Below, piece after piece: positions 16,541 to 54,589 of a stretch of DNA of 64,000 bases. The position numbers and the translations under genes were made by a program. Position 1 is the first letter of the stretch. Each line of letters starts with the position of its first letter. The notes under the pieces are model-generated. The model did no database searches. It was not told where the DNA came from and saw only the letters and a program-made list of their open reading frames with translations. The stretch comes from Psammoneis japonica (taxonomy: Eukaryota): NCBI GenBank assembly GCA_008632985.1, contig QPGO01000295.1:1-64000 (forward strand), written 5' to 3'.

Positions 16541-16555
16541 TGTCATGGGTGCACG

Positions 16556-16737
16556 CGAGTGAATCTGGATGGAGGGCCATGTCACAACTGGTGATTGGTC
16601 AAGACACATGGCTCGAGTGGTGCTGCAGCAACATGCTCACAATCTAATCAGGTTTAGGTTTGCATTGACAGTGTCGCTGCTTTCTGTTTAGACTTAAGGT
16701 GTCGTGCTTGTTCTTTTGTTGCATCGAGATTTATTCG
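16556..16737 (+). repeat. 5' LTR of copia copy 1
   Basis: Direct repeat of 23173-23354; inverted termini cgagtgaatct...agatttattcg; followed by ctttgtcagagcca (iMet PBS-like TATCAGAGCCA with TA->TG). Confidence 0.88.
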
Positions 16738-17152
16738 CTTTGTCAGAGCCAAGACGAAAAAGACAGAGCGAAATGGTTTTGAGTGCAATTCGTCATGGAC
16801 GATTGTTTGTTGTGTTGTTTGCTTGGAACGTGCAGCTGTAGAAATGGCGCTGAACTGCACGCGATGTGTCAGAATTCGGATTGATGCACACGATGATGCG
16901 TCTCGTGTCGCTTGTTGCAACATCCACAAAAACAGCTTGCAATGGCAATGCTCGCAAAGATGGTCACTGTCCTCACATGTGCAACGGGTGTGAAGGGACT
17001 GCGGTGTTGGGCGACATGCCCAAGCGTGTGCTCAACAATGTTGGTTGACATGAATGACACAGGACTGATCACCCTGGCGTCAGGTGGCTGTGTGAACCCG
17101 TTGTCACAACACAGAGAAAGTGCAGCCATCATGACCATGCAGACTCACAGCT

Positions 17153-18676
17153 GTGTGTTCCCGGCACGGGACCTTTGCACCCTTTCTCCATTGTGGGATG
17201 GCAGCAGCGGCAGCACCAGCACCAGCACTTGCGGCGTCAGCCGCGGCAGCTGACGTTGACACAGTTTTGCAAGTTTGTGGTGTTGCTGACCAGAACGCAA
17301 GGGCGAGGTTGGTCTTCTGTGAAGGGTTCACGACTTTGGAAAACATCGCAGTGATGGAGAGTGATCACGATGTGGAAGACATGGTGCAGAGGGCGTCTCG
17401 TCGCATGGTGGCCGACGGACGTGTGACTCTTGGGGCTGTTCAGATCAAGAGCTTGCAGGCGCTAGCATGGTGGGGCCAGGATTTGCTCAAACGGAATCAG
17501 CCATTGGTTGCGGCAGACTTCAATGCAGGAGCTGTGGCTGCGGCCTGGAATGGTGGGCGTGTCGAAAAGGAGCGCACGGATTCGGACGCGTCGGCAAGCG
17601 GTCTCGTAAAGTTCAAGCCCGATGACTTCGATGTGTGCGAAGATGCTTTCTTGAATCTCTTGGCACAGAAATTTGGCATGTTGAAAGAACCCCTTTGCCA
17701 TGTTGTAAGGACAATGCCAGCTCTGGCTGCATTCACGGATGCTCGACAACAGCGCATGCACCAGATGCCATTGAATGGCGCCACACATGATGAGGACAAC
17801 CGCTTGGTCGACACGGCAGGATGGGCATGGATCGAACCGTTTGACATGACAGAAGACGGACGTGGAGCATTCGACGCATGGGTTGACCATTGCAATGGAC
17901 AGGGCAAGTTGAGCAAGCGCATCCATCTGGCTACGGCAACTGTTGAAACCTTGTTTCACAAAAAGGAAGGATCGCTCCCGTTCGAAAAGTTCAGTGACAA
18001 ACTTGCCGGTGCTTTCGCCACTTTGAACAAATCACCGGACGACCGCAAATCTGAACGACAGAAAGTTGACATTCTTCTAAAAGGGATCCGAGCGGATGAC
18101 ACTCGTCTCATTGCAGCAACGGCTGTCATTGGCAGTCAGCACCCTTGTGACTTCGCGGGGGCATGTGCTTGTTTCTCATCCGAAGTCTCTCGTTTGCATG
18201 CAGGTGCTCAGTTGGAAGCCCGGCATTGCTCGAAGCACAAGATTTCTGAAATGAGCCATGGTGGCGGCGGTGGCTGTGGTTTTTGTCGAGGTCGCGGTCG
18301 CGGAGGAAGATTTGGACGTGGGGGTGGACGCGGACGTGGTGGCCGTCAAGGTGGAGGTGGCGACCACACTGTGATGATCAATGGAGTTGATGCATCCGAC
18401 CCTACAAGGAGCTTTAGCGCTCAAGAATGGGAAAAGTTACAGTGTGATGGAGGCATGAGCTGCGTGTTCCAAGCTCGCGAACGAATGGGTCATCAAGGAC
18501 GCGATGGGGGTGGCAGGCATGCAGCTGAAGCCCAAGTCCATCAAGATGGCCAAGGCCAAACCCAACAACAGGATCAGGAGCAAAGGAGCAGCGGGCATGG
18601 TCGCGGCACTGACCGGGATCGCGGTGGACGCAATGGACGCGCCTTCGGTTGGGGAGCCTGCAATGGTTCCACCTGA
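17153..18676 (+). CDS. gag: Copia gag (hypermutated, no Tyr; the true start is probably the Met of MAAAAAP)
   Basis: 507-aa ORF with DGRGAF...HCNGQG, RGG-rich region and INGVDASDPTRSF.EW motif typical of diatom copia gag. Confidence 0.85.
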   Translation: MCSRHGTFAPFLHCGMAAAAAPAPALAASAAAADVDTVLQVCGVADQNARARLVFCEGFTTLENIAVMESDHDVEDMVQRASRRMVADGRVTLGAVQIKSLQALAWWGQDLLKRNQPLVAADFNAGAVAAAWNGGRVEKERTDSDASASGLVKFKPDDFDVCEDAFLNLLAQKFGMLKEPLCHVVRTMPALAAFTDARQQRMHQMPLNGATHDEDNRLVDTAGWAWIEPFDMTEDGRGAFDAWVDHCNGQGKLSKRIHLATATVETLFHKKEGSLPFEKFSDKLAGAFATLNKSPDDRKSERQKVDILLKGIRADDTRLIAATAVIGSQHPCDFAGACACFSSEVSRLHAGAQLEARHCSKHKISEMSHGGGGGCGFCRGRGRGGRFGRGGGRGRGGRQGGGGDHTVMINGVDASDPTRSFSAQEWEKLQCDGGMSCVFQARERMGHQGRDGGGRHAAEAQVHQDGQGQTQQQDQEQRSSGHGRGTDRDRGGRNGRAFGWGACNGST

Positions 18677-18685
18677 CTCCTTGGG

Positions 18686-21600
18686 GTGGCAACAGCCATT
18701 GGAGCATTGGCGTGTTTGGCGCACTTGTCGTTTTTGCTTGTGTTGCTCTTCTTGCTGTTGACTGAACCCCACCCAACATCTCGTTTCAAAGGAAAGGCGA
18801 CAAAGAGGCACATTGCCATGACATCAAAACGTGTGATCCGATCGACGAGTTCTGCACAGATGACAAATTTGACGACACCTGGGTTCATCACTCGAAATGA
18901 ATGTGACACTCACGCAGACACTTGTTGCGCTGGGGCGAACTGGAAGCTCATGGAGATGACAAATGAAGTGTGCGAGGTGCGCCCATTTCTGGACTCTTGT
19001 GAGCCGATCAAACAGATTCCTGTGGCACGTTGTTGCACCGCATGGACAGATCCGGAAACGACTCGTGAATTTTTGCTGGTTGGTGATCAAATGCTCTGGT
19101 TTGGGACCGACATGGAACACTCACTTTTGAATCCTAACCAACTCAGTGCGCACAACATGCCCGTGCACGACAACCCTTGCGACACCCGAAACGGATTTGG
19201 CATTGAAGCTGACGAAGCTTTCATCCCTTTCAATGCCACGGGGACAATTGTGTCTTTCAAGTCTCGTGTTCCGACGGATTGGGAAGTGCAGAACTTGCCA
19301 GTTGTGCTGTTGACAGGTGACGCATGGGATCCAGCACAGACAGACATGGGCTTGCCGGAGAGCACTAGAGAGCAGGCGGAGATGCGCACCATTCGATCAT
19401 TGACCTCTGGCATGCGACAAGAACAGGTCTCGGAATTAAGGAGCGAGAAGGCAAAGTCCCAAGCAGCACGCTGGGGCGAGGTCGAAATGCAACTGTCGTC
19501 TGCATCTCCTGTCTGTCAACTTCAATCGTTTTGCGACAGGCTTGTCAGCTCTGTGAACGTGGCTTGCACATGTCATGACGACGTGGACAAGAGGCAGATG
19601 GCAGTCAAAGACTTACACAGCAAGGATCGGCACTCGAAGGTTGACGCTGAAGAGCTGGCCCGAAAATGGAGTGTCGGTTTAGAGACGGCAAAAGATGCTC
19701 TCAATGCAACAACTCAGCGCAGTGTGCAAACGGCGACCCAGCCGATGTCACGAAGAGTGAGGGTGGATCATCTTGACTTGCATCGGAAGCGTCTGAAAGG
19801 AACATGGTTTGTGGACACTTTGATGTCCAAGGTGAAGTCTTCACTCGGCAACACGTGTGCCAATGTTTGTGCTCAGGGCAAATTCGTGAAGGTTGTGCCG
19901 ATGACCGCCAGGTCGGAGGCAGGTTTGTCTCTTGTTGAATTCACAGATGACGTGGGTGTGCCAGAACATCTCATGTCAGACGGGGCAGGAGAGTTCACTG
20001 GAAGGAGCACCGAATTTGTGAGACACACACGACTTGTGAGAACACAATTGAGAACATCAGAGCAGGGTTGGAAGAACCAGAACCAGGCAGCGGAGCACGA
20101 AATTGGTTTCTTAGCCAAATGTTGGCGGCTGCAGATGACGAAGAAGAAGGTGCCAAAGCGATTGTGGGATTTTGGTCTTTTTTGCGAGTCGGAATTAGTG
20201 TCGCGCATGGCAAGAGGCAGGGACAAGAGGACTGGATGTGAAGAGGTCACTGGGCAGACACCAGAGACAGGCGAGCATTTGGATTTTGGTTTCTACGACA
20301 TGGTGTGGTGGTGGGACAGGCCCAACAAGCCGAGTGCAACTGACAATCCTCGAAGGCTTGGACGGTGGCTTGGTGTCTCACACAAAGTTGGCTCGGACAT
20401 GTGCTGTTGGATCATTGCGGAAAGCGGGAAGATTGTCTCCAAAACATCGGTCGAGCACGTGACACAGGCTGACATGGTGCAACCGGACATTCGCGTCAAG
20501 GTCGACAACTTCAATGAGCAGCTGGAGAAGCGATTGGACGACACTGACTTTGTCTTAAAAGGCGATGAAGCTGCACCCGCATTCGTGTTGGACGATCTTG
20601 CAATTGACGGCAACCTCGGTGTGGAATGTGAGGAGGGCATCACGCCAGAGGACAAGGAATGTGGCAACATGCTGTCACCCGACGAGCGACCAGACGATGA
20701 CGACGAGCAGGCAATCGATCAACACCTGGGAATGGAACTCATGTTTGACATCGGAGCCGACGGCGAGCGACGTGGTGTTGCAACAAAACGTGCAAGAGGA
20801 CAGGATGGGCGTCCAATTGGGACTCGGCATCAAAACCCATTGTTTGACACTCGCGAATGCGAAGTGGAATGTGCCGATGGAACCACAGACAAGTGCACAG
20901 CCAATGTCATTGCCGAGAACATGTTTGCTCAGGTCGACAGCGAGGGCAACCAGCACTCTATCTTGCACGAGATGCAGGACCACGAGAGGAGTGACGATGC
21001 GGTGTCGATTGCTGACGGCACCGTACGAACCGCTGACGGGAAGGAGAAGAAGAAGATCACAACAAAAGGATGGAAGTCATTGGTCGGATGGAAGGATGGC
21101 AGCTCATCTTGGGTCAAACTCAAAGATCTAAAGGACTCCAACCCCATTGAAGTTGCTGAGCATGCTGTTGCGAACAGGTTGACGGAGGAACCTGCTTTTG
21201 CTTGGTGGGTCACACATGTCCCACGCAAACGGAATCGCATTGCATCCAAGGTCAAGAAGAAGTGCTGGCGCACGACTCACAAGTTTGGGATCCGATTGCC
21301 CAAGTCCACGGAGGATGCTTTGCGGATTGATCAGGAAACGGGGACAGATCATTGGGCTCATGCAATCAACAAGGAGATGGCAAAGGCAAAGGTGGCATGG
21401 CGCGAGCACGAAGCTGAAACCCCTCAAGTCGTCCGGGAAGGCAAGAGCACAACTTTGCGTGGTTGTCAGGAGATCAGGTGCCACATGGCATTTGACATTA
21501 AAATGGATTTCACCAGAAAGGCAAGGTTTGTAGCTGGCGGACACACGACAGAGGCCCCAGCATCGATCACTTGCTCTGGCGTGGTTTCCAGAGACAGTGT

Positions 21601-23179
21601 GCGACTTGGATTCTTGTTGGCAGCCTTGAATGGTGTCGACATTGCGGCGATTGATCTGGAGAATGCTTGTCTCAATGCACCGTGCGCAGAAAAGATGTGG
21701 TTTGAAGGCGGAAAGGAATGCGGCGAGTGCGAAGGAAAGGCACTTGTTGTCACTCGGGCGTCACATGGCTCAAAGAGCTTGGGACACTCTTGGAGGTCTG
21801 CACTGTCATTGGTCTTACGTGACTTGGGCTTTGAATCGACGAGAGCAGACCCAGATGTCTGCTTGCATGCGGCGACTCGTGAGGATGGGCACGAGTGTTG
21901 TGAAATGCTTTTGGTTTGTGTCAATGACACACTGATCATTTCCCATCAAGGGAAGTCCATTGTTGCTGCAGTGGGTGAACACCATGCCGTGAAGCCCGGC
22001 AGCGAAGGAGAACCAGAAGTTCATCTTGGAGCTAACGTTGAGAAGGTTCAGACTCAGGATGGGTGCACAATCTGGGCGAGTTCACCGAGGTCATGTGTCA
22101 AATCGGCGATTGAGACTGTGGAAGGCCTGTTGGATGAAGACGGCAATGGAGAGGTTCTGAAGAACAGTGCAAAGGATCCACTGCCCCCGAAACACAAACC
22201 GGAACTGGGCGTGACGGACGAGTTAGGCCCGGACTTGGTGGACAGGTGTTTGCAGCTGACAGGGATTTGTCGTTGGGCAATCGAGTTGGGTCGCATCGAC
22301 ATCTTGCGTGAGGTTTCAATCCCATCTCAACATCAAGCTAATCCGAGGAAAGGACATCTTGAGGCATTGTGCCACGCATTTGCGTGTGTGAAGAAACACC
22401 AGAACGTCGGACGCATCGGATTTGATCCAAAGGAACCGGTGATTGATGAATCTATTTTCAATTCGAACACAGACTGGACCGAGTTTTACGGGGACGTCGA
22501 GGAGGAACTGCCGCCATGGGCACCGAAGCCTCGTGGCAATCCGGCAAACATCTGTGCATTTGTTGACGCTAACCATGCAGGGAATGTTGTCACTCGCAGG
22601 TCGCATGGCGGGATTCTGACATTCGTCAATGACGCACCAGTGGTGTGGTTCAGCAAGCGGCAGAACACGGTGGAATTGGCAACGTTTGGAAGTGAATTGG
22701 TTGCAATGCGGATTTGTAAGGAATTGATTGTTGCTTTGCGTTGCAAGCTTCGCATGTTTGGGGTTCCCCTTGAAGGACCGGCAAGTGTCTTTTGTGATGA
22801 TCGCGGTGTTGCAAAGAATGCAAGTGCACCCGAGTCGGTTTTGCACAAGAAGCACAATGCCATCAACTGCCATGTTGTGCGAGAAGTGGTTGCAGCGGGA
22901 ATTGTTCGTGTTGGCAAGGAGGATGCGGAAACAAACTTGGCCGATCTACTTGTGAAGGTGGTTGCAGGAGAGCGGCGATGGAAGCTTTGCTCATGTGTTT
23001 TTTGGCAATGTCCCGACACCAAGGCCAGGCACCTGTGGCTCGCGCCCACGTGCAGTGGCCTCCCAAGCCAGCATGTCTGGTGGTTTAATTTGGGTTCTTG
23101 TGGTTTGCCTCTCTGTGAGAGGATGTTGCATGTTTGGACGAATTGGCACTGTCATTGCCGTTTCGCGGGGACCGAGTAA
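18686..23179 (+). CDS. pol: Copia pol (PR-IN-RT-RNaseH), open but catalytically degenerate
   Basis: Protease DTHADTCCAG; integrase SDGAGE and PKRLWDF; RT KARFVAGGH, SRDSVR, NACLNA, LLVCVND (from YVDD); RNase H FVDANHAG, TFGSE, NLADL; IN precedes RT. Confidence 0.93.
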   Translation: MATAIGALACLAHLSFLLVLLFLLLTEPHPTSRFKGKATKRHIAMTSKRVIRSTSSAQMTNLTTPGFITRNECDTHADTCCAGANWKLMEMTNEVCEVRPFLDSCEPIKQIPVARCCTAWTDPETTREFLLVGDQMLWFGTDMEHSLLNPNQLSAHNMPVHDNPCDTRNGFGIEADEAFIPFNATGTIVSFKSRVPTDWEVQNLPVVLLTGDAWDPAQTDMGLPESTREQAEMRTIRSLTSGMRQEQVSELRSEKAKSQAARWGEVEMQLSSASPVCQLQSFCDRLVSSVNVACTCHDDVDKRQMAVKDLHSKDRHSKVDAEELARKWSVGLETAKDALNATTQRSVQTATQPMSRRVRVDHLDLHRKRLKGTWFVDTLMSKVKSSLGNTCANVCAQGKFVKVVPMTARSEAGLSLVEFTDDVGVPEHLMSDGAGEFTGRSTEFVRHTRLVRTQLRTSEQGWKNQNQAAEHEIGFLAKCWRLQMTKKKVPKRLWDFGLFCESELVSRMARGRDKRTGCEEVTGQTPETGEHLDFGFYDMVWWWDRPNKPSATDNPRRLGRWLGVSHKVGSDMCCWIIAESGKIVSKTSVEHVTQADMVQPDIRVKVDNFNEQLEKRLDDTDFVLKGDEAAPAFVLDDLAIDGNLGVECEEGITPEDKECGNMLSPDERPDDDDEQAIDQHLGMELMFDIGADGERRGVATKRARGQDGRPIGTRHQNPLFDTRECEVECADGTTDKCTANVIAENMFAQVDSEGNQHSILHEMQDHERSDDAVSIADGTVRTADGKEKKKITTKGWKSLVGWKDGSSSWVKLKDLKDSNPIEVAEHAVANRLTEEPAFAWWVTHVPRKRNRIASKVKKKCWRTTHKFGIRLPKSTEDALRIDQETGTDHWAHAINKEMAKAKVAWREHEAETPQVVREGKSTTLRGCQEIRCHMAFDIKMDFTRKARFVAGGHTTEAPASITCSGVVSRDSVRLGFLLAALNGVDIAAIDLENACLNAPCAEKMWFEGGKECGECEGKALVVTRASHGSKSLGHSWRSALSLVLRDLGFESTRADPDVCLHAATREDGHECCEMLLVCVNDTLIISHQGKSIVAAVGEHHAVKPGSEGEPEVHLGANVEKVQTQDGCTIWASSPRSCVKSAIETVEGLLDEDGNGEVLKNSAKDPLPPKHKPELGVTDELGPDLVDRCLQLTGICRWAIELGRIDILREVSIPSQHQANPRKGHLEALCHAFACVKKHQNVGRIGFDPKEPVIDESIFNSNTDWTEFYGDVEEELPPWAPKPRGNPANICAFVDANHAGNVVTRRSHGGILTFVNDAPVVWFSKRQNTVELATFGSELVAMRICKELIVALRCKLRMFGVPLEGPASVFCDDRGVAKNASAPESVLHKKHNAINCHVVREVVAAGIVRVGKEDAETNLADLLVKVVAGERRWKLCSCVFWQCPDTKARHLWLAPTCSGLPSQHVWWFNLGSCGLPLCERMLHVWTNWHCHCRFAGTE

Positions 23180-23354
23180 ATCTGGATGGAGGGCCATGTT
23201 GCAATTGGCGATTGGTTGAGATGCATGGTTCGAGTGGTGCTGCAGCGACACGCTCACAATCTAATCAGGTTTAGGTTCGCATTGACAGTGTCACCACTTT
23301 CTGTTTAGACTCAAGGCATCATGCTTGTTCTTTCGTTGCATCGAGATTCATTTG
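23173..23354 (+). repeat. 3' LTR of copia copy 1
   Basis: Matches 16556-16737 over 182 bp; differences are mostly TA or CpG transitions. Confidence 0.88.
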
Positions 23355-24239
23355 CATGCATCTGTCTGTGTGCATGTCCAAGTGCATTTCTCAGTTTGCA
23401 ACAAGTCTTTTCATGGCTTGATGCATGCACAGTTTCTGCTCATTTTGTGCACTGTGTTCTGCTCAATTCTGCAAGATCTCTGAGAGAGCAGCTCTGCCAG
23501 AAAAGTTTTCTGTCTCACCTCACAATTTGAGCATCTGGCTGCAGATGGAATGTGCGGGTGTCAGACACCAGTTTCCTGGCATTTCTCTTGTAAAATGATC
23601 ATGTGGCAATTTTGTGCAATTTCAAAAAAAGATGAGGTTGAATCGAAAATGCAACAGATGCTTGCAAAAGTGCAACACAACATGAGAAGCAACAATGGCA
23701 TCCATGTGGGGATGAAAACAGCATCCACACCAATTTGAGGCATGCACACACAACAATGTTGGCACACAACAAATTCAACTGATGTGCCATTTGGCTCACT
23801 CGTGTCTTTCCAAGTGCTCCAATCGACCATTCTAGATGACGTCATTGTCATCAACATTCCTTGTAGGTGCTGTGAGCAGTTCATGCAGAAAATTGCAAAA
23901 ATTGCTGGTGACAGTTTTCCACTCATGGGCACACACACACACAACACCTTTCTGCATGTGCCCATTGCATGGAGAATGATGGTGTGCCCCATGGAGAATG
24001 ACGGTGTGCCCCATGGCCAGCGTTGCAGAGGTGACACATTCTGGCTGCTCTGGGTGGAACCATGCTCCACTGAACTGCAACATTGACAGTTTTTTGGATT
24101 GCACCACAACAATGGAAATCATCGTGGCTCTCAGAGTCAGTGCACAGAAACTGTGCAGAAGAGCACCAGCACCGTCAGCAAATTTTTGTCACTTTGTTCA
24201 TTTGCATGTGTCCAACAGACAAATGATGTCATGTGGGAT

Positions 24240-24645
24240 TTAGCATCTGAGTGTTTTGTTCTCAAGTGTCAACTTTATGCTCCTTGCCAAAGTTGCCAAT
24301 TGAATCATGAAATGTCAATGCAGAAAGTGGTCGCGGAATGCGCTGAGCAGAAGGAAGTCAGCACAAGTCAACAAAAGTCAACACAAGCAAACCAAAGTTG
24401 GCAGAAGTCAACACAAGTCAACAAAAAGTGCAGAAATGTCCAAAGACAAACTGACAGTCTCCCGCACCTTGCTTGCCTGCAGCCCCCCGTGATGAAGAAT
24501 GTCATGAACACACACAGCTTTGCATGGGCACCACGCACACATGACCAGAGGACAGTCAACACAAGTCAACAAAAGTCAACACAAGTCAACAAAAGTCAAC
24601 ACAAGTCAACACAAGTCATGACAAGTCATGACAAGTCAACCTGCT
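24240..24645 (+). repeat. Element with internal 10-bp minisatellite arrays (caagtcaaca-type), TA-depleted
   Basis: Arrays at ~24355-24425 and ~24553-24640; spacer aaatgtccaaagacaaactgaca matches the reverse complement of ~54785-54807. Confidence 0.75.
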
Positions 24646-25689
24646 TGAGCAAAAGCATTTGAGTTTGCTCACAACTTAACCCTTCAACCACCAGGGGTTG
24701 CTCCACTTGGGGATGTGTGACGTGTCTCGCACTTTTGTGAGACAATGCAATGAACACAGTGTCAAAATGTCATGTCGTGCAAAATCTGTGCAAAGAAAAA
24801 TCTCCACCGGCGGAGATTTGCTCCCAGGGTGTGGTGTCATTGCTCTGTTTGTGACAGCAATTCATAACAACCTCCATTGTCAAAGGTTGAGATTTAATTT
24901 CTCTCTGTTCACAGATGAAGCTTGCAAAAAACCCGGTGTTAAAAGGCGACATTGAACTTTCTAAATTGCAAAAAGGGCACCTCCAGATTTTCGGTGAGTG
25001 CGCACTCCAGAACAAAATCGTGCAAACAAAATGTTGTGTGTGTCTGAAATTGCTTCATTTGCCACATTTGTGATGCAAGCAAGCAAATCTCCACCCATGG
25101 AGATTTGCTCAAGTCCAGTGGTTGAAGGGCCAATTCATTCAACATCATTTGTCATGAACAAAATTTGCAAAAGATGTTTGGCAAGCAAACAAGACCAAAT
25201 TCAATGGTCATCCGTTTTAAATGGAAACCGCAAATTCATGTGTTGAGGTGTGAAATTCACATGTTCAAGACTGTGTCATTAAAATTTGCGGATGGTGCAG
25301 AAACAACTGTTGTCAGTCTGTCTGCCCATCCATGCACGAATGTCAACTCCTCAGGAAATCAGCTGAAATGTCATCTGATCAAAGGCGTTGCTCTTCACCA
25401 CATGCAAATCAAAACACCTTTGCTCAGATGACATTTCAGCTGAGCTCCCAAAAAGTCAGCAGCTCCAATCACCCTCTTGCATGACATTGCACACATTTCC
25501 ATGCAATTTGGTGTTTTTCCTCATGCAAAATGTCAGTTGTGACTTTCGCAACATTTTCAAATGATCCCCATTGTCATGCATGTGCAATTCCACATGTTTT
25601 CTTCTGCAAAGTTGCTTCACACACCTTGTGTTGCAAAGCCAAAGGCTCTCCATTTTCAACATTCATGAGAATGAAAATGGGCTGGGTGT

Positions 25690-26246
25690 GACGTGTTCCA
25701 GTCCCAGGTGACGCACAAAACGACAATCGGATTTTGAATATAATTTATGTATATTTTAGTGTATATAGCATTTTAATAAAAATACTTAGACGGATTGACT
25801 TTTATAGGCTCCTAGAGTATGAACATTTAAATAGTATTTTGAGGGGTATTCAAATCCTCATGGGATATGTATCATAAACTTCCTCAGTAGGCTCAATACT
25901 GATTGTACGTCAGTGGATTTATACTGAGATTTTTTTGTAGGTAGAAAACCTACCAAGTAGCATCGTAGAAAGATATATTTAGGTAACATCCAAATAACGG
26001 CAATATTTTCGCCGAAAATCATCCGTTGTGTTACGAATCTTTTAACGCAATGAAAAACATAGATGGCACAATTACAATGATGTTGCAACACTCACACGAG
26101 TCTTGTTAGTGTTGCAAAACATTTATATTTGCATAAATCTATACTTTTGGTGGTGAAAGTTCGATCGTAAGTTAGGGACCGCGCAAAAATCGCGCAAATG
26201 TCGTTTTTGTGCACGACATTTGGTTCACGTGCGGCTGGAACACGTC
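25690..26246. mobile_element. Young TA-rich MITE (GACGTGTTCCAG TIR, 4-bp TSD gtgt) nested in an older related MITE
   Basis: gtgt|gacgtgttccag ... ctggaacacgtc|gtgt; TA-depleted homologue at 46657-47186. Confidence 0.9.
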
Positions 26247-27902: not shown

Positions 27903-30822
27903 ATGAAACTCTTTAAGCAAAACCGGTTGTGCGGCTGGATCGTTGCGGCTTCAGTCCTCCTTCGAGCCTGTGAGATTGTTGAGGTTCTTGCTGGGACGGA
28001 GCCATGGAACGACGAGGTAAGCTCCTATAAACATCTCGTATCGACCGAATGTTCAATGAACCAAGAACACAAAGCTTTGTATTATGTAGCTGATCTTGTC
28101 CCCTTCTTTAACCTCGTAGGCAACGCCGCATGAAGCAAGCGATTCCAATTCACGTGGTCTTCAACCTGTACCGGTATCAGATGGGGTCCAAGGAGGTGGT
28201 TTCGGAGCATATGATAGCAACGAAACCGAGAAGAAGCCGCTTTCTACTGGAGACTTCCATCTACGAGCAAGTGCACGGCGTCTTCAACATCTATCAGATG
28301 GGGTCCACGGAGGCACGTTTGTAACAGATGATACCAACGATCCAGAGACGGTGAGTTTTCATCGACGAGATTTGCACAACATCCACGTTGAATTCTGCCT
28401 CATCAAATATCGGTTTTCGCTTTGACTCTGTCAGCATGCTGCTCCATACGAAGCCCCAGATGCCAAGGCGGAGCGGGGATCAGGACATCAGGACCCTTCC
28501 GTTGCAGCACGACGTCTTGGCCCGGGAATGTCCGTGGTGTCCAGGACGCGGTTGCCGCACCTGGCTGAATACCCACCCCGCGAAGTGCATATACACGTGC
28601 AAGGACATTTCGCGTATCTCGGCTGTTACTTTTCTAAAAAAGTGTTAATCTACGACATTTCGGATCCGGCTGCGCCAAGGTATGTTGCGTCAGTCGACAC
28701 GTGCTCTACTCTTCATGGGAACTTCATTGTGGACATTTGGGTTTCTGGCACTAATTTGTGGACGGCACACCGAAGGGGAGAAATTACCATGGTTGACATC
28801 TCTGATCCCGCAAATCCAGTGACGCCGCCAGAATGCTTCTCGGAAACATATTGCCGCAAGGGCTTGATATCGTCCCATCCGTCAAATCACGGTTCTTACT
28901 TGTTTTACTCCGGACGATCCTTATCGATGTACAGCATATGGCATGAGCCGCCATCTCTCAGGCTGGAATATCGTAGCCCCCCCGTAAAACCTTCGGGTGC
29001 CGATGAGGTGATTCTCTCTCGCTATAATGAATATCTATACTGGTTGACCCGCAAGGGGCCTGTTGATGCCACCGTCGACATATACAAGATAAATTATCCG
29101 ACATACACTTACGAAAAACCAAACATTACTCTGGTTGGAAAACTCAGTCCACCAAGCGGCACTACACCTCCGCACGAAATGATTCTTGGCTATCATGATA
29201 GAATTTATGGGATAGCATTGAATGCCACGGGTCGTGGCGAAGGATTTGTTATCTATGACGCTGCCCGTGGTGAAAAAGATACGAACCCAGAAATCCTTGG
29301 GCGTGTCTCCAACCACCCACTTGCATATCGGATGGCACTTGATGACGACGGCGAAGTGCTTTACGTTGGGGATCACGATGGGAGTGCAAAAATCAGTGCC
29401 TACGACGTTCGAGATCCCACCTCGCCACGGTTGATTGACTCATATGACCTACCACCGGCCACTTATGAACTTGGATATGGCGGCTCCTTGTACCAAATGG
29501 GCGGTTTGTGGTACCATAACGCACATGTCTATACAGTCAACGGAGATGATCTCGTCATTCTCGGCTCTTCACACTCTCCTCCAGATCCGTTCGCAAAGTA
29601 TTCGGGGTCCCTTCCTTACCCCGTGCTCTTTATACATGGTTGGGGAGCCGACAAAAGGTTCTGGAAGGGCCATGATGTTCGCGGGTTTGGTGTATATTTC
29701 AAACCTGATACAGGCAGCATACCCGATCATGTCGCAAGAGAGTTTGAGGCCTATCCGTATCTCAATTATGCAAACAGGGCAACAGCCGAAAGGCCGTCTA
29801 GCGAAAGAGATGGCTATAAATACAATGGCATGGAATTCTTTGAGTCGTCGGATCCAAGGATGGATGTTGTATCAATGGCGTTGGAGTTGTCTGACAAGAT
29901 CGTTGACGTGTTGGACAAGTATTACGGTGTGGGAAGGTGGCGAAGCATTCAGAATGCAAAAATAATCTGCGTTGCCCATAGCCAGGGTGGTCTTGCTCTT
30001 CGGTGGGCAATCCACAGTGCTATGGCCACGGACCTCGGAAATCCTCTTAACCACATTGACCACATCATCACCATCGGTACACCCCACCTGGGGACATCTA
30101 TGATATTAGAAACCAGCGGCATCAAGGGGTTGGATGACATGAAAGCCATCATTGCACAGAAAAAGAAGGTCGAAATGAAAGGTGATGCCACTTGGGGTAT
30201 CTTCAAAATGGAGGGTAAGGCCGACTACATCTTTGGCATATACAAGGTTAAGGTCAAGAGGTTTGGGATAACATGGAACACGATCGAATACGATGCGTCA
30301 AAATACAAAGAAAATGTTATGAAACTCCTCGAAATCGGTGGACCTGATCTCGCCATGGGATCCTCTCTAGTCAAAGAAATGCAAAGCCATTACCCAAGCA
30401 ACACATTCACAGGAAAGAAGATACCACTGAGTGCGTTGTACAGCCATGTTGGAGATTATTTTTTGGAGAGGATTTTTCTAGAATTCAAGCGAGCGATAAG
30501 GAAGGAGAACGTGGACAGTGCAAGTGATTGGGGAGCGGGCAACGAAGTGGGAGAAATAATTGACGAAATGTTTGGCGACATCATGCCTTATGTGAAGCAG
30601 TTTGACAAGGATTGGTCAGCACATTCTGACTTGGTTGTTGATGTGAATTCTCAGATTGGGAGTGGGTTGTTTGATTCTTCCCGTGACCCCTTCAGGGCAA
30701 TCAACATCGGGACGGCCCTCCATGCAGACCATCGAAGCCCACTCTCAAATGAACTGCTGCCCGGCCAGAACAGCCTTGCCCAAAAGGAGGTTGCCAATGC
30801 AATTCGTTATCCACCCCGTTGA
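27903..30822 (+). CDS. Secreted protein with LVIVD-repeat beta-propeller and alpha/beta-hydrolase (lipase/PGAP1-like) domain; exons 27903-28016, 28120-28350, 28435-30822 (~910 aa)
   Basis: Hydrophobic N-terminus; two phase-0 GT-AG introns join in frame; repeats IYDISDPAAP, VDISDPANP, YDVRDPTSP; hydrolase motifs PVLFIHGW, AHSQGG, TIGTPHLG; normal TA and Tyr content. Confidence 0.85.
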
Positions 30823-39895: not shown

Positions 39896-42800
39896 AGATC
39901 AATGAACAAATGAGTGAAACGAGGATTCATTGCTCTGCTCATTTGTTTTGCAGTTTTCAACAGTGTGCGAATGGATGGACGGTGCACGTGCCCTCCCTTG
40001 ATGCTCTTGTCTGAGATCTTGGGGCATTCGTTGTCGTCCACCAGGCCTGTCGACAGTCGCCTCATGCGAGTGCATCACGCCACTCTTGAGGAAGGATCAA
40101 CATGGAAGGATGCCTTTTTAGTTCTTCAGAGATTTCTCATTGTTGCTGCAGTTTTGGCACCCTCTAGAGCAAAACGTTTTAACTCATGTTGCACACAAGT
40201 GATCCTCGGATCAGCCCTTTCGTCTTTTCCGCCGTTTGCACTCTCTGCAGCAGCACTGGAACCACACTGCTGCTTGTTTGTTTTGCAGTTTCCAGCGGCG
40301 CACCAACAGATGCACGGTGCACGCACCCTTCCTTGAAGCTCTTGTCTGACATCTTGGGGCATTCGTCATCGTCTGCTGCCACAGGCCTGTGTCGACAGTC
40401 ATGTCAAGCGAGCCACGGTGCCACACTTGAGCCCTTGGCCTTCCTGTCTTGAAATTTTCGGGGCGCAGACTAGTGGGCTGGGGCATGTCGAAGACGAGCA
40501 GCTGCATCATCCGAGTGCTGCGCCAACGATGAATCAATCCCCTCCCCGTCATGGTTTCACCTTTCATGTGCGTCCGAATGATGAATTTGGATGGAGCGGT
40601 CTGTCCCTGGATGGGGCAGTTGCAAGGTCAGCATTTAGAGGTGCGCTCATGCGCACACAATCCAGTCAGTTTGGGCTCGCATTGATGCTGTCACTGCTTG
40701 CTTTAGACACAAGCCATTGCTTTTGCTCTTTCGTTGCATCAAGATTTGTTTGCTTTGTCAGAGCCATCAGCAAAAACGCTGATCAAAATGGTTGCAAACA
40801 CAATTTTTCATTGTGAACGATTGTTTGTTGTGTTGTTTGCATGGAGTGTGCAGCTGCAGAAATGGTGCTGAACTGCACGTGCAGTGTTTGAAGAAATGGC
40901 TTTGGATTGTTGCGCACAAAGATGCATCTTTTGTTGCACACAACATCCACTGAACAGCTTGCAATGGAAAATGCTTGCAAAGACAGTCACCATCCTTGTG
41001 TGTGTGTGACGGGTGTGGGGGGGCGGCTGCGGTGCTTGGCAGCATGCCCGAGCGTGTGCTCGACAGTGTCAAATGACACAAGATTGATCACCCTGATGTC
41101 AGGTGGCTGTGTGAACCCATCATCACAACACCACAAAGGTGCAGCCTCCATGACCATGCAGACTCCCAACCGCTTGTTCCCTGCACGGGACATGTTGACA
41201 TTCTCTCTTTGTTGTGGGATGGCAGCAGCACACCAGCACCAGCACCGGCAGTTGTGCTTGCAGCTTCAGCTGTGGCAGCAAATGTCAATGCAGTTCCACA
41301 GATTTGTGGAATCACTGGCCTGAATGTGAGGGCAATGTTGGTGTTCTGCAAAGGATTTGCGATGCTGGAGAATGTCGCAGTTTTGGAGAACAACCATGAT
41401 GTGGAGGATTTGGTGCAGAGGGCCGCTCGTCGCACTGTGGTTGATGGTTGTGTCGCCCTTGGCACTCTTGCAGGCTTCAGCATGCTGGTGTCAGGACTTG
41501 CCAAGAGGAGCCAGGCACTTGTTGTGTCTTTGGCTTGAAACGGCAGGCGCATCAAAAAGGAACACACCAAATCGGATGCGACGGCAAGCAGTCTTGTCGA
41601 GTTCAAGTCTGGGGACTTTGACACATGAGAAGAACCTCTTGGCACAGAAGCATGGTGCACTGAAGGAGCCACTGCTCTGGCATGTTGCAAGGACTGTGCC
41701 AGCACTGGCACAATTCATGGATGCTCAACAGCGATGGATGTGCCAACTGCCGCTTGCCGGCAATGCACATGACAAGGATGGTTGCAATGTGTTTTGCATG
41801 TTGAAGGAATGATTGATTGAAGCAGCAGGATGGACCTGGATTAAACCTTTGATGCAGCAGAAAATGGGTGTGGAGCATTTGATGCATGGATTGATCATTG
41901 CAGTGGACAGGGCAAATTGAGCAAGCACATTTGTTGGTGATGGCCACCATTGAAACACTGTTCTACAAAAAGAAAGGGGTGCTCCCATTTGAGAAGTTCA
42001 ACGAGAAGCTTGCTGGTGCTTTTGCCACTTGGAACAAATCTCCAAATGATCAAAAATCTGAATGGCCAAAGATTGATGTTCTTTTGAAGGCCATTTGAAC
42101 AGACAATGCTCGTCTTGTTGCTGCAACAGCTGTTGTCAGTGATCAGCACCCTCATGACTTTGCGGGGGCATGTGCTCACTTTTCATCCAAAGTCTCTTGT
42201 TTGCATGCAGGCACTCAGTTAGAAGCCTGGCATCACACGAAGTGCAAAATTTCACAGATGAGCTGTGGAGGCAGTGGTGGCTGCAATTTTCATCAAGGTG
42301 GAGGATGTGGCAAACAATGGGGTGGAGGTGGCAACTGCACAACCATGATCAATGGGGTTGATGCATTTTGTCCCACAAGGAGCTTGCCCCTCAAGGATGG
42401 GACAGGCTGCATTTCAATGGAGGAATTGATTGTGCATTCCAAGTGCATGAGAGGATGGGACAAGGCTGCGGCGGTGGCTGCGGATCCCCCACAGGACAAC
42501 CTGGACGTGATTGCAGCGGGGTCCATTGGGAGGAACAAGGATGAAATCAGAAGCCAGATCAATCGCACAGTCAAGGAGGCAGTTGTGGACAAGGTGCCAA
42601 CAGTGATGGTGGTGGATGCAATGGATGTCCTTTTGGTCAAGGAGCCCATCATGGTTCTTTGCCTGACTGTTTGGGGTGGTGACAGCCACTGGAGCTTTGG
42701 AGCATGTGTTGCACTTGTGTTTCTCACTTGTGTTGCTCTCATTGCTTTTGACCAAACCTGCAGGATGTTCAATTTGTGAGAGAAGGCAGCAACAAGGTGC

Positions 42801-43286
42801 GCTGCTGTGACAACAAAATGTGTGATGCGGTCAATCAGCTCCAATCAAATGTCTGAGCTGACAACACCCAGCTTCATTGCTTGGAGCAAATGCAACACTC
42901 ACATGGACACTTGTTGTGCCAGAGTGAGTTGAAAACTCATGGAGCTGACAAATGAGGTGTGCAAGGTTCATCCATTCTTAGAATCTCATGAAACAATCAA
43001 ACAGGTTCCTGTGGCATGTTGTTGCGCTGTGTGGACTTGTCCAGAGACGACCCATGAACTTCCACTCATTGGTGATCAAATGTTGTGGCTCGGGACCAAC
43101 ATGGAACATTCACTCTTGAACCCCAACCAAATGCAAGCATGTGATGTCCCTGTGCATGGCAACCCTTGCGACACTTGAAATGGGTTTGGCGTTGAGGCTG
43201 ATGAGGCTTTCATCCCCTTCCATTGCATGGGGACAATTGCAATTTTCAAGTCTTGTGTCCCTGCAGATTGGGAGGAGCAGAATTTG

Positions 43287-43706
43287 GGGCACGCTGAATT
43301 GATCTCACGCATTGGGTGCAACTGCTGTGGGGAGGGGGGAATGTAAAATCATGTGTTGTTCTGTAAAACACGTGCTTCGTCATGCAAAACACACAGCTTG
43401 GCTCATCACCCCATGTTTTGTCAGCAGTGTTTGTTGCACACTTGTCGGTCTGTTGTTGGTCATGTTTGATGTCAGATCAAAACCAGAAGGAACCTGGAAG
43501 TTAGAACTCACTGTCAGCGCACGCAATTTGAGTGCGCAAACAGCAAAAACTGCTTGACTCGACTGTCGAAAGCACCATGATGACCCAAGCTGCTGCTTGT
43601 CACTGGGGCATTTTACAAAACAGGGGTGTTTTACACATTTTGACAATCTGGGGTGAAAGTGGGGTCAGGGGCACTGCCCAATGCGTGAGATTAATTCAGC
43701 GCGCCC
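43287..43706. mobile_element. PIF/Harbinger-like MITE
   Basis: 30-bp TIR gggc(a/g)cgctgaatt(g/a)atctcacgcattggg; 3-bp TSD ttg (possibly from TTA). Confidence 0.85.
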
Positions 43707-44156
43707 TTGGGGTTGTGCTTTTGACAGGCAACACATGGGATCCAACTGAAGTTGACATGGGATTGCCAGAAAGCACTGGGGAACAGGCAGAGATGCGCAC
43801 CATCAGATCATCAACTTCCGGCACATGTGACAGGAAGATGTTTCAGAATCAAGGTGTGACAGGGCAAAGTCCCAAGCAGTTGGCTGGGGCAAGGTTGAAG
43901 TCAAACTGACCCATTTGTCCCCAGTTTGTCACCTCCAGTCATTTTGAGACAGGCTCATTGGCTTGGTCAATGTGGCTTGCACGTGTCAAGATGACATTGA
44001 TGCCAAGCAAAAGTCCATCAAGGAGCCACACAGTGAGGACAGACACTCCAAGATTGATGCCAAAGAGCTGGCCAGGAAATCGAACATCAGCTTGGAAATG
44101 GCAAAAGACATGCTCAATGTGGCTGCCCAACGTGGCGCGCAGATGGCAACTCAACC

Positions 44157-44348
44157 TGTGTCAAGAAGAGCAAGGGTGGACCATTTGGACCCACATTGGA
44201 AGTGCTTGAAAGAAGGGACATGTGTCAAGAAGAGCAAGGGTGGGCCATTGGGACCCACATTGGAAGTGCTTGAAAGAAGGGACATGTGTCAAGAAGAGCA
44301 AGGGTGGGCCATTTGGACCCACATTGGAAGCACTTGAAAGAAGGGATG
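44157..44348 (+). repeat. 64-bp tandem triplication within copia copy 2
   Basis: tgtgtcaagaagagcaagggtgg... at 44157, 44221 and 44285. Confidence 0.9.
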
Positions 44349-44939
44349 TGGTTCATGGACATCCAAGGTCAAGTCTTTGCTCGGTGACACGTGTGCCAAT
44401 GTCTGCACTCAAGGCAAATTTGTCAAGGTCATGCTGATGGCTACAAGGCTGGAGGCAGGTTGGTCTCTTGTTGTCTTTACAGACAATGCAGGAGCACTGC
44501 TGAGTTTGTGAGGCATGCGCGTCATGTGAGGATTGAGCTTGGGACATCAGAACAGGGTCAAAAGAACCAGAGTCAAGCAGCGGAGTGCAAGATCTGTTTC
44601 TTGGCCAAGCACTGGCGACTGCAAATGGCAAAGAAGAAGGTGCCAAAAAGATTGTGGGACTTTGGTCTTGTTCATGAGTTGGAGCTGTCATTGCACATGG
44701 TGTGGGGCAGTGATGAGAGGGCTGGGTGCAAAGCGGTCACTGGGCAAACACTGGAAATTGGCGAGCACTTGGATTTTTGCTTTTGTGACATGGCATGGTG
44801 GTGGGACAGGCCCAACAAGCTGAGTGCAGTGGGTGGCCCAATGACAGCTTGGTTGGTGGCTTGGTGTCTCACACAAAGTCAGACTGGACATGTGCTGTTG
44901 GATCTTTGTGGAGAGCAGGAAGACAGTCTCCCAAAGACA

Positions 44940-45855
44940 GACATGTTCAAGCTCCAGGTTGGACCTTGCACTGCTGGACAGTGACATGATTGTTTTTTGT
45001 CATCCATCACATGTTTTGCACATGCATTTCTCCATGTTCTGTTGTAAAAAAATTGCTCCACACTGCCTGTTTTGCAAAGCCGAAGGCTTTCTGTTTTCTG
45101 CATTTGTGACAACAAAAATGTGCTGGGCACATTCTTCATTGTCTGAAGAACACACCCGGCCATGCTGTCAACAATGCACAGTCTGCTTGCATCAACACAT
45201 GCTTTTTAACATGTGCCCACTCTACAACATGTGCCAAATGTCCGGCCTGACCCCTCGGACAAGGGTCAGAATTCCCTGTTAACAGACAGACTGATGGACC
45301 AACAGGCCATGTCGTGAATCCGTGATGCAACCAGTTTGAGGCAATGAAGTCATTGAGACTGCGCTTGAAACAACTGAAAATGCCCTCATTGACCATTGTT
45401 TGCCTCTGAGAAGTGGTCCTGGGCTTCTTTGCACCTGGCAGGACCAAAGAACAGATGAAGGCATGTCATGGTTTTTTTCAAAAATTGCAGTGGTGGCTGC
45501 GCGAACGCAGCCCAAATGAGTCGTGAGGGAGAAGCGCAAGATTTCAATCTGCGCATGTGTTGGCACTTGTTCTGTGTGTGTGGCAAAGATGCGTGCTTTT
45601 GCACCAGGAAGCAATGACACACATCCTCTCTGTGACATGTGCTGAAATTCGGCATGCACCCCCAGCATGTGTTGACGCGAGCAGACTGCACTTCAAGTGT
45701 GGAGGAGGAGATGCATTTGCAAAATTGCCTCTTTTGTTGTTGGCAATCATTCACACTTTCGTTGCTTGGCAATTTTGCTGTGGTGTGTGGAGCTTGCACA
45801 CAGAATTCGGCGGGCACCATGTCACAAAAAGTCTCACCTGGGGCTGGAACACGTC
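44940..45855. mobile_element. GACG-TIR MITE hosting a nested Tc1/mariner-like MITE
   Basis: gaca|gacatgttcaag ... ctggaacacgtc|aaca; interrupts copia IVSKTSVEH. Confidence 0.85.
45179..45688. mobile_element. Tc1/mariner-like MITE
   Basis: 24-bp TIR cagtctgct(t/c)gc(a/g)tcaacacatgc starting CAGT; flanked by 'ca' on both sides (inferred mutated TA TSD). Confidence 0.82.
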
Positions 45856-46656
45856 AACATTGGTGGAGCATGTGACGCAGGCCAATGTGGTGCAGCCTGA
45901 CATCCATGTTGAGGTTCACAAGTTCAACAGGCAACTTGAGACACACCTGGGCAACACTGGCTTTGTTTCAGAGGGTGACAAAGCTGTGCCAGCATTTGCA
46001 TTGGATGATCTTGCCACAGATGACAATCCCGGTGTCCAGTGTGAGGATGGTGTCATGCCAACGGACAAGGAATGTGGAGACATGCCATTGCCAGACAAGC
46101 GGCCAGACAATGACAATGAGCAGGCAACCAACCAGCATCTGGGCATGGAACTTGTGTTTGACATTGGAGCCAATGGTGAGCAACAAGGTGTCCTCACAAA
46201 ACAAGCAAAAGGACAAGATGGGCATCTGACTGGGACCAGACATCAGAGCCCAACATTTGACACTTGAGAGCATGAAGTCAAATGTGCCAATGGTGCAACA
46301 GACAAACACACAGCCAGTGCAGCTGCTGAGAACATGTTCAATCAAGTCAACAGTGAAGACAACCAATGTTTTGCACTGAAAGAGATGCAGGATCATGAGA
46401 AGACAGGCAATGCAATGCCAATCAATGATGGGACAGCACAAACTGCTGACAAACAGGAGTCAAAAAGGACCACTGCAAAAGGTTGGAAGCTGGTGGTCAG
46501 CTGGAGCCAAGGATGGAAGCTTGTCATGGGTGAAATTGAAGGATCTGAAAGAGTCCAACCCTGTTGAAGTTGCTGAGCATCCTGTTGCAACAAACAGGTT
46601 GGCTGAGCAACCTGCACTTGCTTCTGGGTTGTGCGCGTCCCATGCAAGCAGAGTCA

Positions 46657-47186
46657 GATGTGTTCCAGTCTCAGGCGACACACAAAAGACAATGAATTTT
46701 TGCCACAAATCATGTGTCTCTTGTGCATGAAGCATGTGAATGCAAAACACTTGGGTGGATGGGATTTTGTGGGTCTTCAAGCCTTAGCATTCAATTCCTC
46801 ATGGGACATGCATCACAAACTCCCTCTGCAGACTCAGTGCTGATTGTGCGACAGCTCATTGGATGCAGTTTTTTGGTCGCAGGTGGAACACCTGTCAGAA
46901 GGTCTTGCAGAAAAATTGTTTAATTTGACATTCAAGTGATGGCAACAATTTTGCCAAAAATCATCCATTGTGTTGCGAGTCATTTGTCACAATGAAAAAC
47001 ACAGATGTCACAAAACCAATGACATGGCAACACTGATGCAAGTCTTGCCAGTGTTGCAAAACATTCAATTTTGGACAAGTCCATGCTTTTGGTGGTGAAA
47101 TCTTGTTTGCAAGTGAGAGACTGTGCAAAAATTGCGCAAATGTCATTTTTGTGCACGATTTGGGTCACGTGCGGCTGGAACACATC
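46657..47186. mobile_element. GACG-TIR MITE, TA-depleted homologue of 25690-26246
   Basis: gatgtgttccagtctcagg ... gcggctggaacacatc; tgggacatgcatcacaaac vs tgggatatgtatcataaac. Confidence 0.87.
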
Positions 47187-48553: not shown

Positions 48554-48944
48554 GATGGGTTCCAGTCCTGGGTGGGACTCCGTGTGACATTGGGCCCGTA
48601 GAATTCCACGTGCGAGCTCCGCAGTGCGAGAATTAAATTAATGCATGTGTTTGTCTTCAAACATCAAATAAACTGCCAAGTTTGTGGTGCAATTATGCCT
48701 CTTGCCACTCGACGTTTTTGCAAATGCGCCTGCCCTGCGCGAATCTTAAGACATTGTAGAATCGCGCTGTAACAAAAAATGTCAAAAGTTGTTGGACGGA
48801 TCGCTCAACAAGTGCACCGTAAAATGACACAAAATGTCGAAAAAATCACGTAGAAATCTACGTGCGCGACATACGACGTGATTCAAAAAACTGTCGATGT
48901 CACAGTTCAGCAGTGCGAGGTCCCACCTAGACCTGGAACGCGTC
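48554..48944. mobile_element. GACG-TIR MITE, partially TA-mutated
   Basis: tctc|gatgggttccag ... ctggaacgcgtc|tctc; near-identical to 57726-58110. Confidence 0.93.
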
Positions 48945-54167: not shown

Positions 54168-54589
54168 CGTTTTGCTTGAATAAGATCAAAAGTTGGATCA
54201 AGAAGACACGATGGGAGGAGAAAGGTGATGTTGTTTTTTATGGGCTTCACGCCGTTTCTACCAGGAGAAATCGGATGTAAAAAATGAGGTCATTGATGGC
54301 TGGCATTTTGTATGTTCTGAGAGACGTAGAATGTACTGTACGTGCAACATGGAACATAGAACTTGGTCATGGTCATAAATGAATGAATATTTCATATGAA
54401 CGGTCATTCCGTTTACAGCATTAGATTTATGCTGCACCGCACCGTCCGCGAATTTTTATAAGTCATGCGTATTCATACAATTACAACGGAAATTTTGGCC
54501 TGCGTGATTTGTAGTTCGTAACGGTTATCCGTTGAATTTAGTCTTGTTTGGCAAAGAACACCTTTTACGTATGTTTTAAGTCGTTGGGG

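Follow-up and report, generated by a model that had tools for sequence, protein, structure and literature searches.

The 64,000-nt stretch of DNA analysed here (hereinafter the window; positions 1 to 64,000 of contig QPGO01000295.1, Psammoneis japonica) contains a complete Ty1/copia long terminal repeat (LTR) retrotransposon of 6.8 kb, located at 16556-23355 on the forward strand. The gag and pol frames of this element are open, and nearly all of its TA dinucleotides and tyrosine codons have been replaced. The comparisons described below, with unmutated relatives, between the two LTRs, and with an older copy of the same family in the window, make it likely that the element was inactivated after insertion by a host hypermutation process that converts A:T to G:C specifically at TpA.

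Results

Architecture of the element

The gag and pol of the element correspond to two stop-to-stop open reading frames (ORFs) that share one frame, 17135-18676 (513 codons) and 18677-23179 (1500 codons; Table 1). Pfam RVT_2 (PF07727) matches pol residues 943-1093 with 33.2 bits (cut-off 31.6, E = 5.3e-08). No Pfam integrase model and no Pfam gag model matched the frames of the element; the integrase region is placed upstream of the reverse transcriptase (RT) by end-to-end alignment with copia-type polyproteins, and pol aligns along its length with 19 relatives. Over 94% of its length, pol is at most 63% identical to copia polyproteins of the diatom type, and its only matches with named sources come from the diatoms Fragilaria crotonensis and Nitzschia inconspicua. 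Gag is homologous to that of L004, an unmutated relative whose gag has 496 aa and 11 Tyr, and also to the N-terminal region of the protein P0173 (13 Tyr). Judged from sequence, the element is thus a complete Ty1/copia-type element of the diatom kind (CoDi-like), its diatom origin being read solely from the named matches.

Putative terminal signals adjoin the LTRs. A sequence resembling a primer-binding site (PBS), TTTGTCAGAGCCAAG, directly follows the 5' LTR, and TTTGTCAGA(G/C)CC occupies the corresponding place after the LTR of both L004 and the older copy. The idea, based on a copia PBS, that this site had been damaged by a TA-to-TG change was rejected, as the unmutated relative has the same TG. 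A sequence resembling a polypurine tract, TCGCGGGGAC, directly precedes the 3' LTR, and the CGGGGAC before the LTR is kept in the older copy and L004. The candidate 5-bp target-site duplication is weak and post hoc: GCACG and ATGCA differ at four of five positions, all by transitions, each of which can be explained from one 5-mer by TA-to-TG/CA or CpG-to-CpA. L004 itself, a metagenome contig of 5603 nt, is circularly permuted (3' part of pol, LTR, gag, 5' part of pol), an order to be expected if the relative was present in tandem or circular form, or if the assembly crossed a single LTR.

Table 1. Coordinates of the retrotransposon, the older copy and the neighbouring genes in the window
Feature	Position	Strand	Remarks
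Candidate target-site duplication (5 bp), left copy	16551-16555	+	GCACG
5' LTR, 183 nt	16556-16738	+	Direct repeat of 23173-23355; CpG o/e rises sharply from here
Primer-binding-site-like sequence	16739-16753	+	Directly 3' of the 5' LTR
gag, from first ATG	17198-18673	+	Frame open from 17135; 0 Tyr; ORF listing
Native in-frame gag stop	18674-18676	+	TGA, then CTC; pol continues in the same frame
pol (protease, integrase, reverse transcriptase, RNase H)	18677-23005	+	2 Tyr
RT active-site motif	21917-21928	+	CVND (TGT GTC AAT GAC), YVDD in relatives; alignment, codons
Former pol stop	23006-23008	+	Now CAA (Gln); aligned codon in relatives is TAA/TAG
Pol-frame read-on through 3' UTR into 3' LTR	23009-23179	+	Ends at TAA 23177-23179
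Polypurine-tract-like sequence	23163-23172	+	Directly 5' of the 3' LTR
3' LTR, 183 nt	23173-23355	+	CpG o/e falls from 0.81 to 0.24 at outer edge
Candidate target-site duplication, right copy	23356-23360	+	ATGCA
Host gene island, 798-codon Tyr-rich ORF	28426-30822	+	TA o/e 0.63-0.84
Older copy of the same family	40581-49693	+	Later decay stage
Two overlapping ORFs (590 and 420 codons)	51334-54185	-	Normal TA

Loss of TA and tyrosine in open frames

Gag contains no tyrosine in 513 codons, and pol contains two in 1500, both TAC, at pol residues 540 and 1271. The initial annotation had given the same tyrosine counts for 507 and 1497 codons, the difference being one of where counting starts. Pol is correspondingly rich in Cys (3.7%) and His (3.6%), compared with medians of 1.21% and 2.73% in 120 close matches. 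Across 17153-23179 the observed-to-expected ratio (o/e) of TA is only 0.10 (33 TA), with values of 0.09-0.11 in gag and in pol, while CpG stands at 0.85, TG at 1.46 and CA at 1.55. Gag-pol contains no frameshift, and its sole stop is the native TGA. The LTRs are free of indels, and just two of their 23 differences fall outside TA, TG, CA and CG dinucleotides. The element is therefore structurally young and has undergone near-complete TA loss without indel decay, both of which the initial annotation had proposed.

Tyrosine content of relatives

Two sets of relatives were used: the 150 best representatives of 29,067 matches, and 120 closer matches. Median Tyr is 3.8% in the first set, with at least 1% Tyr in 148 of the 150, and 3.45% in the second (minimum 1.71%). 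At the DNA level, 20 related loci show TA o/e of 0.53-0.78 and CpG o/e of 0.79-1.30. The family is thus not naturally poor in Tyr, a possibility that the initial annotation had named as damaging to its own reading.

The losses fall on conserved residues. Among 24 columns with at least 60% Tyr in 19 near-full-length relatives, the element has Cys in 13, His in four, Tyr in two and another residue in five; in the same alignment it keeps conserved Trp (15/15), His (10/10) and nearly all Gly (39/43). At the 15 aligned Tyr codons of L004 it has five His, four Cys and no Tyr. At 30 conserved Tyr columns among 21 close relatives it has 19 Cys, seven His and two Tyr; with 28 of the 30 gone, the copy cannot be autonomous. 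The RT motif YVDD has become CVND, in which Tyr-to-Cys arises by TA-to-TG, and Asp-to-Asn by CpG-to-CpA at a dinucleotide that spans the codon boundary. CpG decay thus also contributes to the lesions, including that of the catalytic Asp. DANHAG in place of DADHAG in RNase H was rejected as a lesion, because close unmutated relatives also have DANHAG.

Direction and dinucleotide specificity of the changes

The 21 close relatives define 753 columns with at least 80% conservation. The element is changed at 122 of them: 54 changes are reversed by restoring TA from TG or CA, 14 by restoring CpG, and 54 by neither. The missense inactivation suggested earlier is thereby borne out. L002, an unmutated relative passed through the same pipeline as a control, is changed at 36 columns (one TA-type, nine CpG-type, 26 other), although this control understates ordinary divergence because L002 is nearer to the 21 relatives than the element is.

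Single-step changes at conserved columns (n = 92) comprise 59 A>G on either strand, 15 G>A and 18 transversions, compared with five A>G among 31 single-step changes in the control; 30 further changes are multi-step. Specifically, 54 of the 59 A>G changes are at TpA and 14 of the 15 G>A changes are at CpG. The direction is thus from A:T to G:C, with TpA as the target. Both strands were hit, as the 54 TA-type events comprise 32 TG and 22 CA outcomes. A codon alignment with six relative DNA stretches gives the same picture: where the relatives have TA, the element has TA in 2-6% and TG or CA in 48-58% of positions, and each of eleven other dinucleotides is kept in 18-59%.

Editing of A outside TpA is not supported, since only five of the 59 A>G events at conserved columns lie there and the control has about as many (four). 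Two side observations nevertheless hint at weak A>G of this kind. Five of 40 listed differences from other copies in run X1 (described below) have G in the element and A in the other copies in an R-A-Y context (R, purine; Y, pyrimidine), at 17435, 17451, 18092, 21971 and 22209. The two LTR differences outside the dinucleotides fit the same R-A-Y A>G pattern on the other strand.

The surviving TA dinucleotides are not a random sample. Only one of 42 in the element is RTAY and 24 are YTAR, compared with 35% and 18% of the 1575 TAs of six unmutated relatives (chi-square p = 4.9e-10). Window-wide, RTAY makes up 105 of 361 TAs in normal segments and only nine of 210 in depleted ones, and YTAR goes up from 51 to 113. 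TTAA, CTAA and TTAG are favoured among the survivors in depleted DNA, and ATAT, GTAT and ATAC are nearly absent. This pattern fits a mutator with a flank preference, which would edit A faster when a pyrimidine lies next to it on the 3' side; alternatively, the bias could come from TAs that were newly created. Sorting the 54 events by strand and flank gives 12 TG and five CA at YTAY, and two TG and six CA at RTAR, a trend only (Fisher p = 0.08) from a count with biased ascertainment, as synonymous outcomes are invisible at conserved columns.

Comparison of the two LTRs

The LTRs are identical at 160 of 183 positions (87%), with no gaps and 23 differences, all of them transitions. Twenty-one of the differences fall in the 96 positions that belong to TA, TG, CA or CG dinucleotides and two in the other 87 positions. 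The split of LTR divergence called for in the initial annotation thus gives roughly tenfold lower divergence per position outside such dinucleotides, not the equally high divergence that would have spoken against it. By site, the differences are three of TA versus TG or CA, eight at CpG, five double differences of CA versus TG, and two others. The five doubles could descend from TA or CG; the L004 LTR is mostly unalignable, and the older copy is itself mutated. Because the LTRs were identical at insertion and now differ, some of the TA/CpG-type mutation occurred after insertion. At 11 ancestral LTR CpG sites, five were lost in the 5' LTR and three in the 3' LTR; on these small numbers, CpG loss per copy seems to have been greater in the LTRs than in the coding body (16739-23172).

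CpG o/e stands at 0.84-0.89 within gag and pol, compared with 0.18-0.24 in the flanking DNA, with the switch at the LTR edges, and TA is low throughout the element and both flanks. The CpG step combined with uniformly low TA indicates that the element entered DNA that had already decayed, and lost TA before much else.

Stop codons of the element

The stop between gag and pol, TGA, is native to the family and not damage: an in-frame TGA CTC stands at the corresponding position in L004, and another relative, L006, also has an in-frame stop at the junction. Since TGA holds no TA, this stop is immune to the mutator. The pol stop has a different fate. Close relatives end in IFW or IMW. In all five relatives with DNA the aligned codon is a stop, TAG for L002, L003 and L004 and TAA for L001 and L006; the element has VFW and then CAA (TGG CAA, 23003-23008). 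The change of the ancestral pol stop to CAA, put forward as likely in the initial annotation, thus holds against the aligned codon of every relative with DNA. Its erasure adds 57 codons, up to a TAA inside the 3' LTR. The 3' UTR of L002 is also open in the pol frame and ends with TGA at the same place as this TAA, which probably arose by G-to-A, because L002, L004 and the older copy read TG there.

The openness of the frames follows from the chemistry. A:T-to-G:C changes turn no sense codon into TAA, TAG or TGA, and they can destroy TAA and TAG; TAG and TGA arise by changes to G or C only from TAA. Because changes to G or C cannot make stops, the element was disabled by missense only, with its frames open. 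We simulated this on two unmutated relatives, with 500 runs on each. Conversion of 90% of TA to TG or CA (151-163 events) added no stop in 500 of 500 runs for either relative. An equal number of changes of CA or TG to TA, the type made by repeat-induced point mutation (RIP), added 16-22 stops on average, random transitions about five, and random substitutions seven to eight. The spectrum alone therefore yields open frames, and no selection is needed to explain them.

The same logic applies to the depleted DNA of the window as a whole, where the density of TAA is 1.8 per kb and that of TAG 0.9 per kb, compared with 9.7 for each in gene islands, and TGA stands at 22.5 per kb, compared with 20.8. 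ORFs of at least 100 codons are only modestly inflated, at 3.4-3.8 per kb in depleted DNA compared with 2.0-2.25 in gene islands; the strong effect falls on frames that were open at the start.

Other copies of the family

The older copy in the window is about 68-75% identical in nucleotides to the element, in blocks, and its LTRs (40581-40750 and 49524-49693) are 80.6% identical to each other. It has TA o/e of 0.06, CpG o/e of 0.32, one Tyr, frame shifts between matching segments, and 28 in-frame stops (27 TGA and one TAA). Compared with the element, it shows 6.8% transversions and 295 gap columns in 6.6 kb. The two copies represent successive stages of decay, in which TA was erased first and CpG loss, TGA stops and indels followed. 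Open frames are temporary, as the older copy shows.

One DNA run made of contigs, X1, which is possibly the source sample, yields 2119 contig pieces on the element: 471 at 99% identity or above, 601 at 95-99%, 833 at 90-95% and 214 below 90%. They differ from the element at 275 places, 251 of them by transitions. Among 40 listed rows, 14 show CG in other copies where the element has TG or CA, nine show the opposite TG/CA choice, and one shows TA. From these pieces and rows, the family is multi-copy and its other copies are also TA-poor. The nine rows with the opposite choice also speak for mutation that continued after insertion. X1 is the only run listed with the element's sequence, and no RNA sequencing run is among those listed.

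Three public predicted proteins of the family bear on the prediction that such relics will be mis-annotated as intact Cys/His-rich genes. P0104 has His or Cys at seven of eight conserved Tyr positions; P0170, an open frame of 1405 aa, has them at nine of 30; and P0137 has less than 1% Tyr. The prediction holds to the extent that these family proteins carry Tyr-to-Cys/His changes. It does not extend to the element itself, whose gag and pol ORFs were absent from the protein collection in an exact look-up with one ATG start each.

Gene islands and depleted DNA in the window

TA depletion is not confined to the element. Altogether, 109 of 128 500-nt segments (about 85% of the window) have TA o/e below 0.25. 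TA o/e is 0.45-0.89 in two gene islands, at about 28.0-30.5 kb and 51-55 kb, which contain Tyr-rich ORFs with Pfam domains. The forward-strand ORF of the first island encodes an LVIVD repeat and a DUF676/PGAP1-like serine esterase. The overlapping ORFs of the second, on the reverse strand, encode a metallopeptidase of the reprolysin-like M12B type (HEIGHN), with fibronectin type III repeats after it, and are probably one gene with an intron. Isolated segments with near-normal TA occur within depleted DNA at 25501-26000 (o/e 0.76) and 57501-58000 (o/e 0.58). An array of a 10-nt unit (AAGTCAACAC-like) lies in TA-depleted DNA downstream of the element, at 24344-24648.

Discussion

The explanation that we consider likely is that a full-length copia element was inactivated after insertion by host TpA-specific A:T-to-G:C hypermutation. 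Specifically, the element would have inserted into DNA that was already mutated, and the hypermutation (TA to TG or CA) would then have struck both strands of the chromosomal DNA. About 87-93% of the TA dinucleotides would have been lost before much CpG decay and before any indel. The resulting disablement would be by missense only, with Tyr becoming Cys or His, Ile becoming Thr, Met or Val, Val becoming Ala, Leu becoming Ser and Asn becoming Asp. YVDD would have become CVND and the pol stop would have been erased, while the gag and pol frames would have stayed open. We infer that the agent may be a DNA adenine deaminase or a similar enzyme, directed at silent or repeated DNA as a genome defence.

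Several observations weigh against this explanation or narrow it. In the LTRs, only two to three differences are unambiguous TA sites, compared with eight CpG sites, and at one of the three, LTR position 6, outgroups favour a gain of TA from TG. TA o/e in the LTRs is 0.40 and 0.32, compared with 0.10 in the body; the flank bias may account for this retention, as the surviving LTR TAs are mostly of the slow YTAR type, an argument made post hoc. The 54 conserved-column changes of neither type exceed the 26 of the control, and a TpA mutator does not explain the excess. The nearest unmutated relatives compared are only 63% identical in protein, and most changes in the body cannot be dated to before or after insertion, because they are polarised through distant relatives. 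In simulation, CpG decay of 20% is expected to create three to six new TGA codons, with none in 0.4-2.4% of runs; the element, which still contains 23 CGA codons, has no new TGA, a mildly surprising result. The body has probably lost well under 20% of its CpG, as the absence of new TGA would otherwise be unexplained. Last, within one window, a process aimed at repeats is not separable from one that acts on anything outside expressed genes.

The last point bears on a reading in which nothing recognises repeats or foreign DNA, and silent chromatin over the whole region slowly loses TA and CpG through a context-specific bias. Such a bias would account for depletion that extends beyond the element into both flanks and about 85% of the window. 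We nevertheless regard it as unlikely, because TA is near saturation while CpG o/e is still 0.85 and indels are absent, which requires a very high rate and is better fitted by a burst or a targeted process. The corresponding process in Bigelowiella natans is local and episodic (Mettrop et al., bioRxiv 10.64898/2026.01.13.699255). A still less probable origin is editing before integration, either ADAR-like on genomic RNA or by deamination of cDNA during retrotransposition. The stronger TA depletion of the body relative to the LTRs (o/e 0.10 versus 0.32-0.40) and a modest excess of A>G on the coding strand (32 TG to 22 CA, with 19 Tyr-to-Cys and seven Tyr-to-His) point that way. Such editing would leave its mark on one strand and in identical LTRs. 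Instead, changes are abundant on both strands, the two LTRs disagree at TA/TG/CA sites, as they could do only after integration, and flanks outside the element carry the same signature. In addition, a CVND copy could not make itself, though copying in trans is possible.

The family might instead be TA- and Tyr-poor by codon or dinucleotide bias, with the copy intact or domesticated. The frames, open for 513 and 1500 codons, are what such a history would leave. With Tyr of 3.4-3.8% and TA o/e of 0.53-0.78 in relatives, 28 of 30 conserved Tyr replaced, CVND in the RT motif, and an open frame that the mutation spectrum gives without selection in simulation, we give this account almost no credence.

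We also offer, tentatively and with confidence that falls somewhat short of even, a wider proposal. Diatoms might carry a TpA A-to-G mutator that is directed at repeats or silent chromatin, prefers RTAY, acts faster than CpG decay and disables by missense only. It would be of the same kind as that of Bigelowiella, either ancient in SAR or convergent, and would leave Tyr-free, Cys/His-rich pseudo-ORFs throughout the genome that inflate gene counts. If this is true, a major group of marine primary producers has a genome defence with the reverse chemistry of RIP. The practical consequence is already visible in this element: because the mutator makes no stops and erases TAA and TAG, dead transposons keep kilobase-long frames and can pass as intact genes or as 'active' elements, which affects annotations, estimates of transposon age and protein databases. 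The flank bias of the surviving TAs provides a testable clue to the enzyme.

Comparison with known systems

5-Methylcytosine deamination in methylated transposons causes CpG decay to TG and CA, with TGA arising from CGA, and cannot remove TA. CpG decay is also active in the element, as indicated by eight CpG-site differences in the LTRs and 14 CpG-type changes at conserved columns, but it is much slower than TA loss (CpG o/e 0.85 versus TA o/e 0.10). Methylation of diatom transposable elements is treated in PMC9998398. The diatom CoDi elements, which like this element are Ty1/copia with the order PR-IN-RT-RH, were described by Maumus et al. 2009 (PMC2806351). The passages searched there contain nothing on TA loss and report, for diatom elements, at most a single stop codon or frameshift separating gag from pol. 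We found no description of TpA hypermutation in our searches of the literature on diatoms, the B. natans preprint being the sole relevant result, and a 2025 diatom-transposon preprint does not mention TpA, dinucleotide, hypermutation, RIP or deamination.

RIP is a C-to-T change at CpA, which makes TpA and many stop codons. Its signature, TpA enrichment with CpA and TpG depletion, is the opposite of that of the element (TA 0.10, TG 1.46, CA 1.55). In Neurospora and other Pezizomycotina, RIP resembles the present process in that dinucleotide-specific transitions disable repeated or mobile DNA in place while genes are spared (see also PMC7296669). The chemistry is opposite: here TpA is destroyed and no stops are made, in line with the simulated zero stops versus 16-22 for RIP-like changes.

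tRNA adenosine deaminases act on A34 beside the invariant U33, which would suit a TpA preference. For B. natans, Mettrop et al. (bioRxiv 10.64898/2026.01.13.699255) propose an ADAT2-like candidate enzyme. In mutation-accumulation lines of that species, the mutations seen in integrated DNA of giant viruses and virophages are confined to TpA, which becomes TpG or CpA. The preprint also lists 324 predicted CDS that are depleted in TpA and enriched in reverse transcriptase and DDE domains, and such relics are thus called as genes. In word searches, its main text contains none of the terms diatom, tyrosine, stop codon, context, trinucleotide and flanking.

The hypermutation process itself is therefore not new, as it matches the TpA hypermutation of B. 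natans. In both cases, A>G or T>C occurs at TpA on either strand and locally, on foreign DNA, with an outcome depleted in TpA and enriched in CpA and TpG; in the element, the single-step changes at conserved columns are mostly A>G and nearly all of these are at TpA, and the gene islands of the window are spared. Unlike the viral integrants that the preprint follows in real time in a rhizarian alga, the present case is a fossil footprint in a diatom-type stramenopile, which extends over most of the 64-kb window and includes a complete LTR retrotransposon. The present analysis adds the stop-codon argument with its simulation, the pol stop erased relative to five relatives and the native TGA preserved beside it, the two-stage series within one window, the flank bias, and the public proteins that carry the signature.

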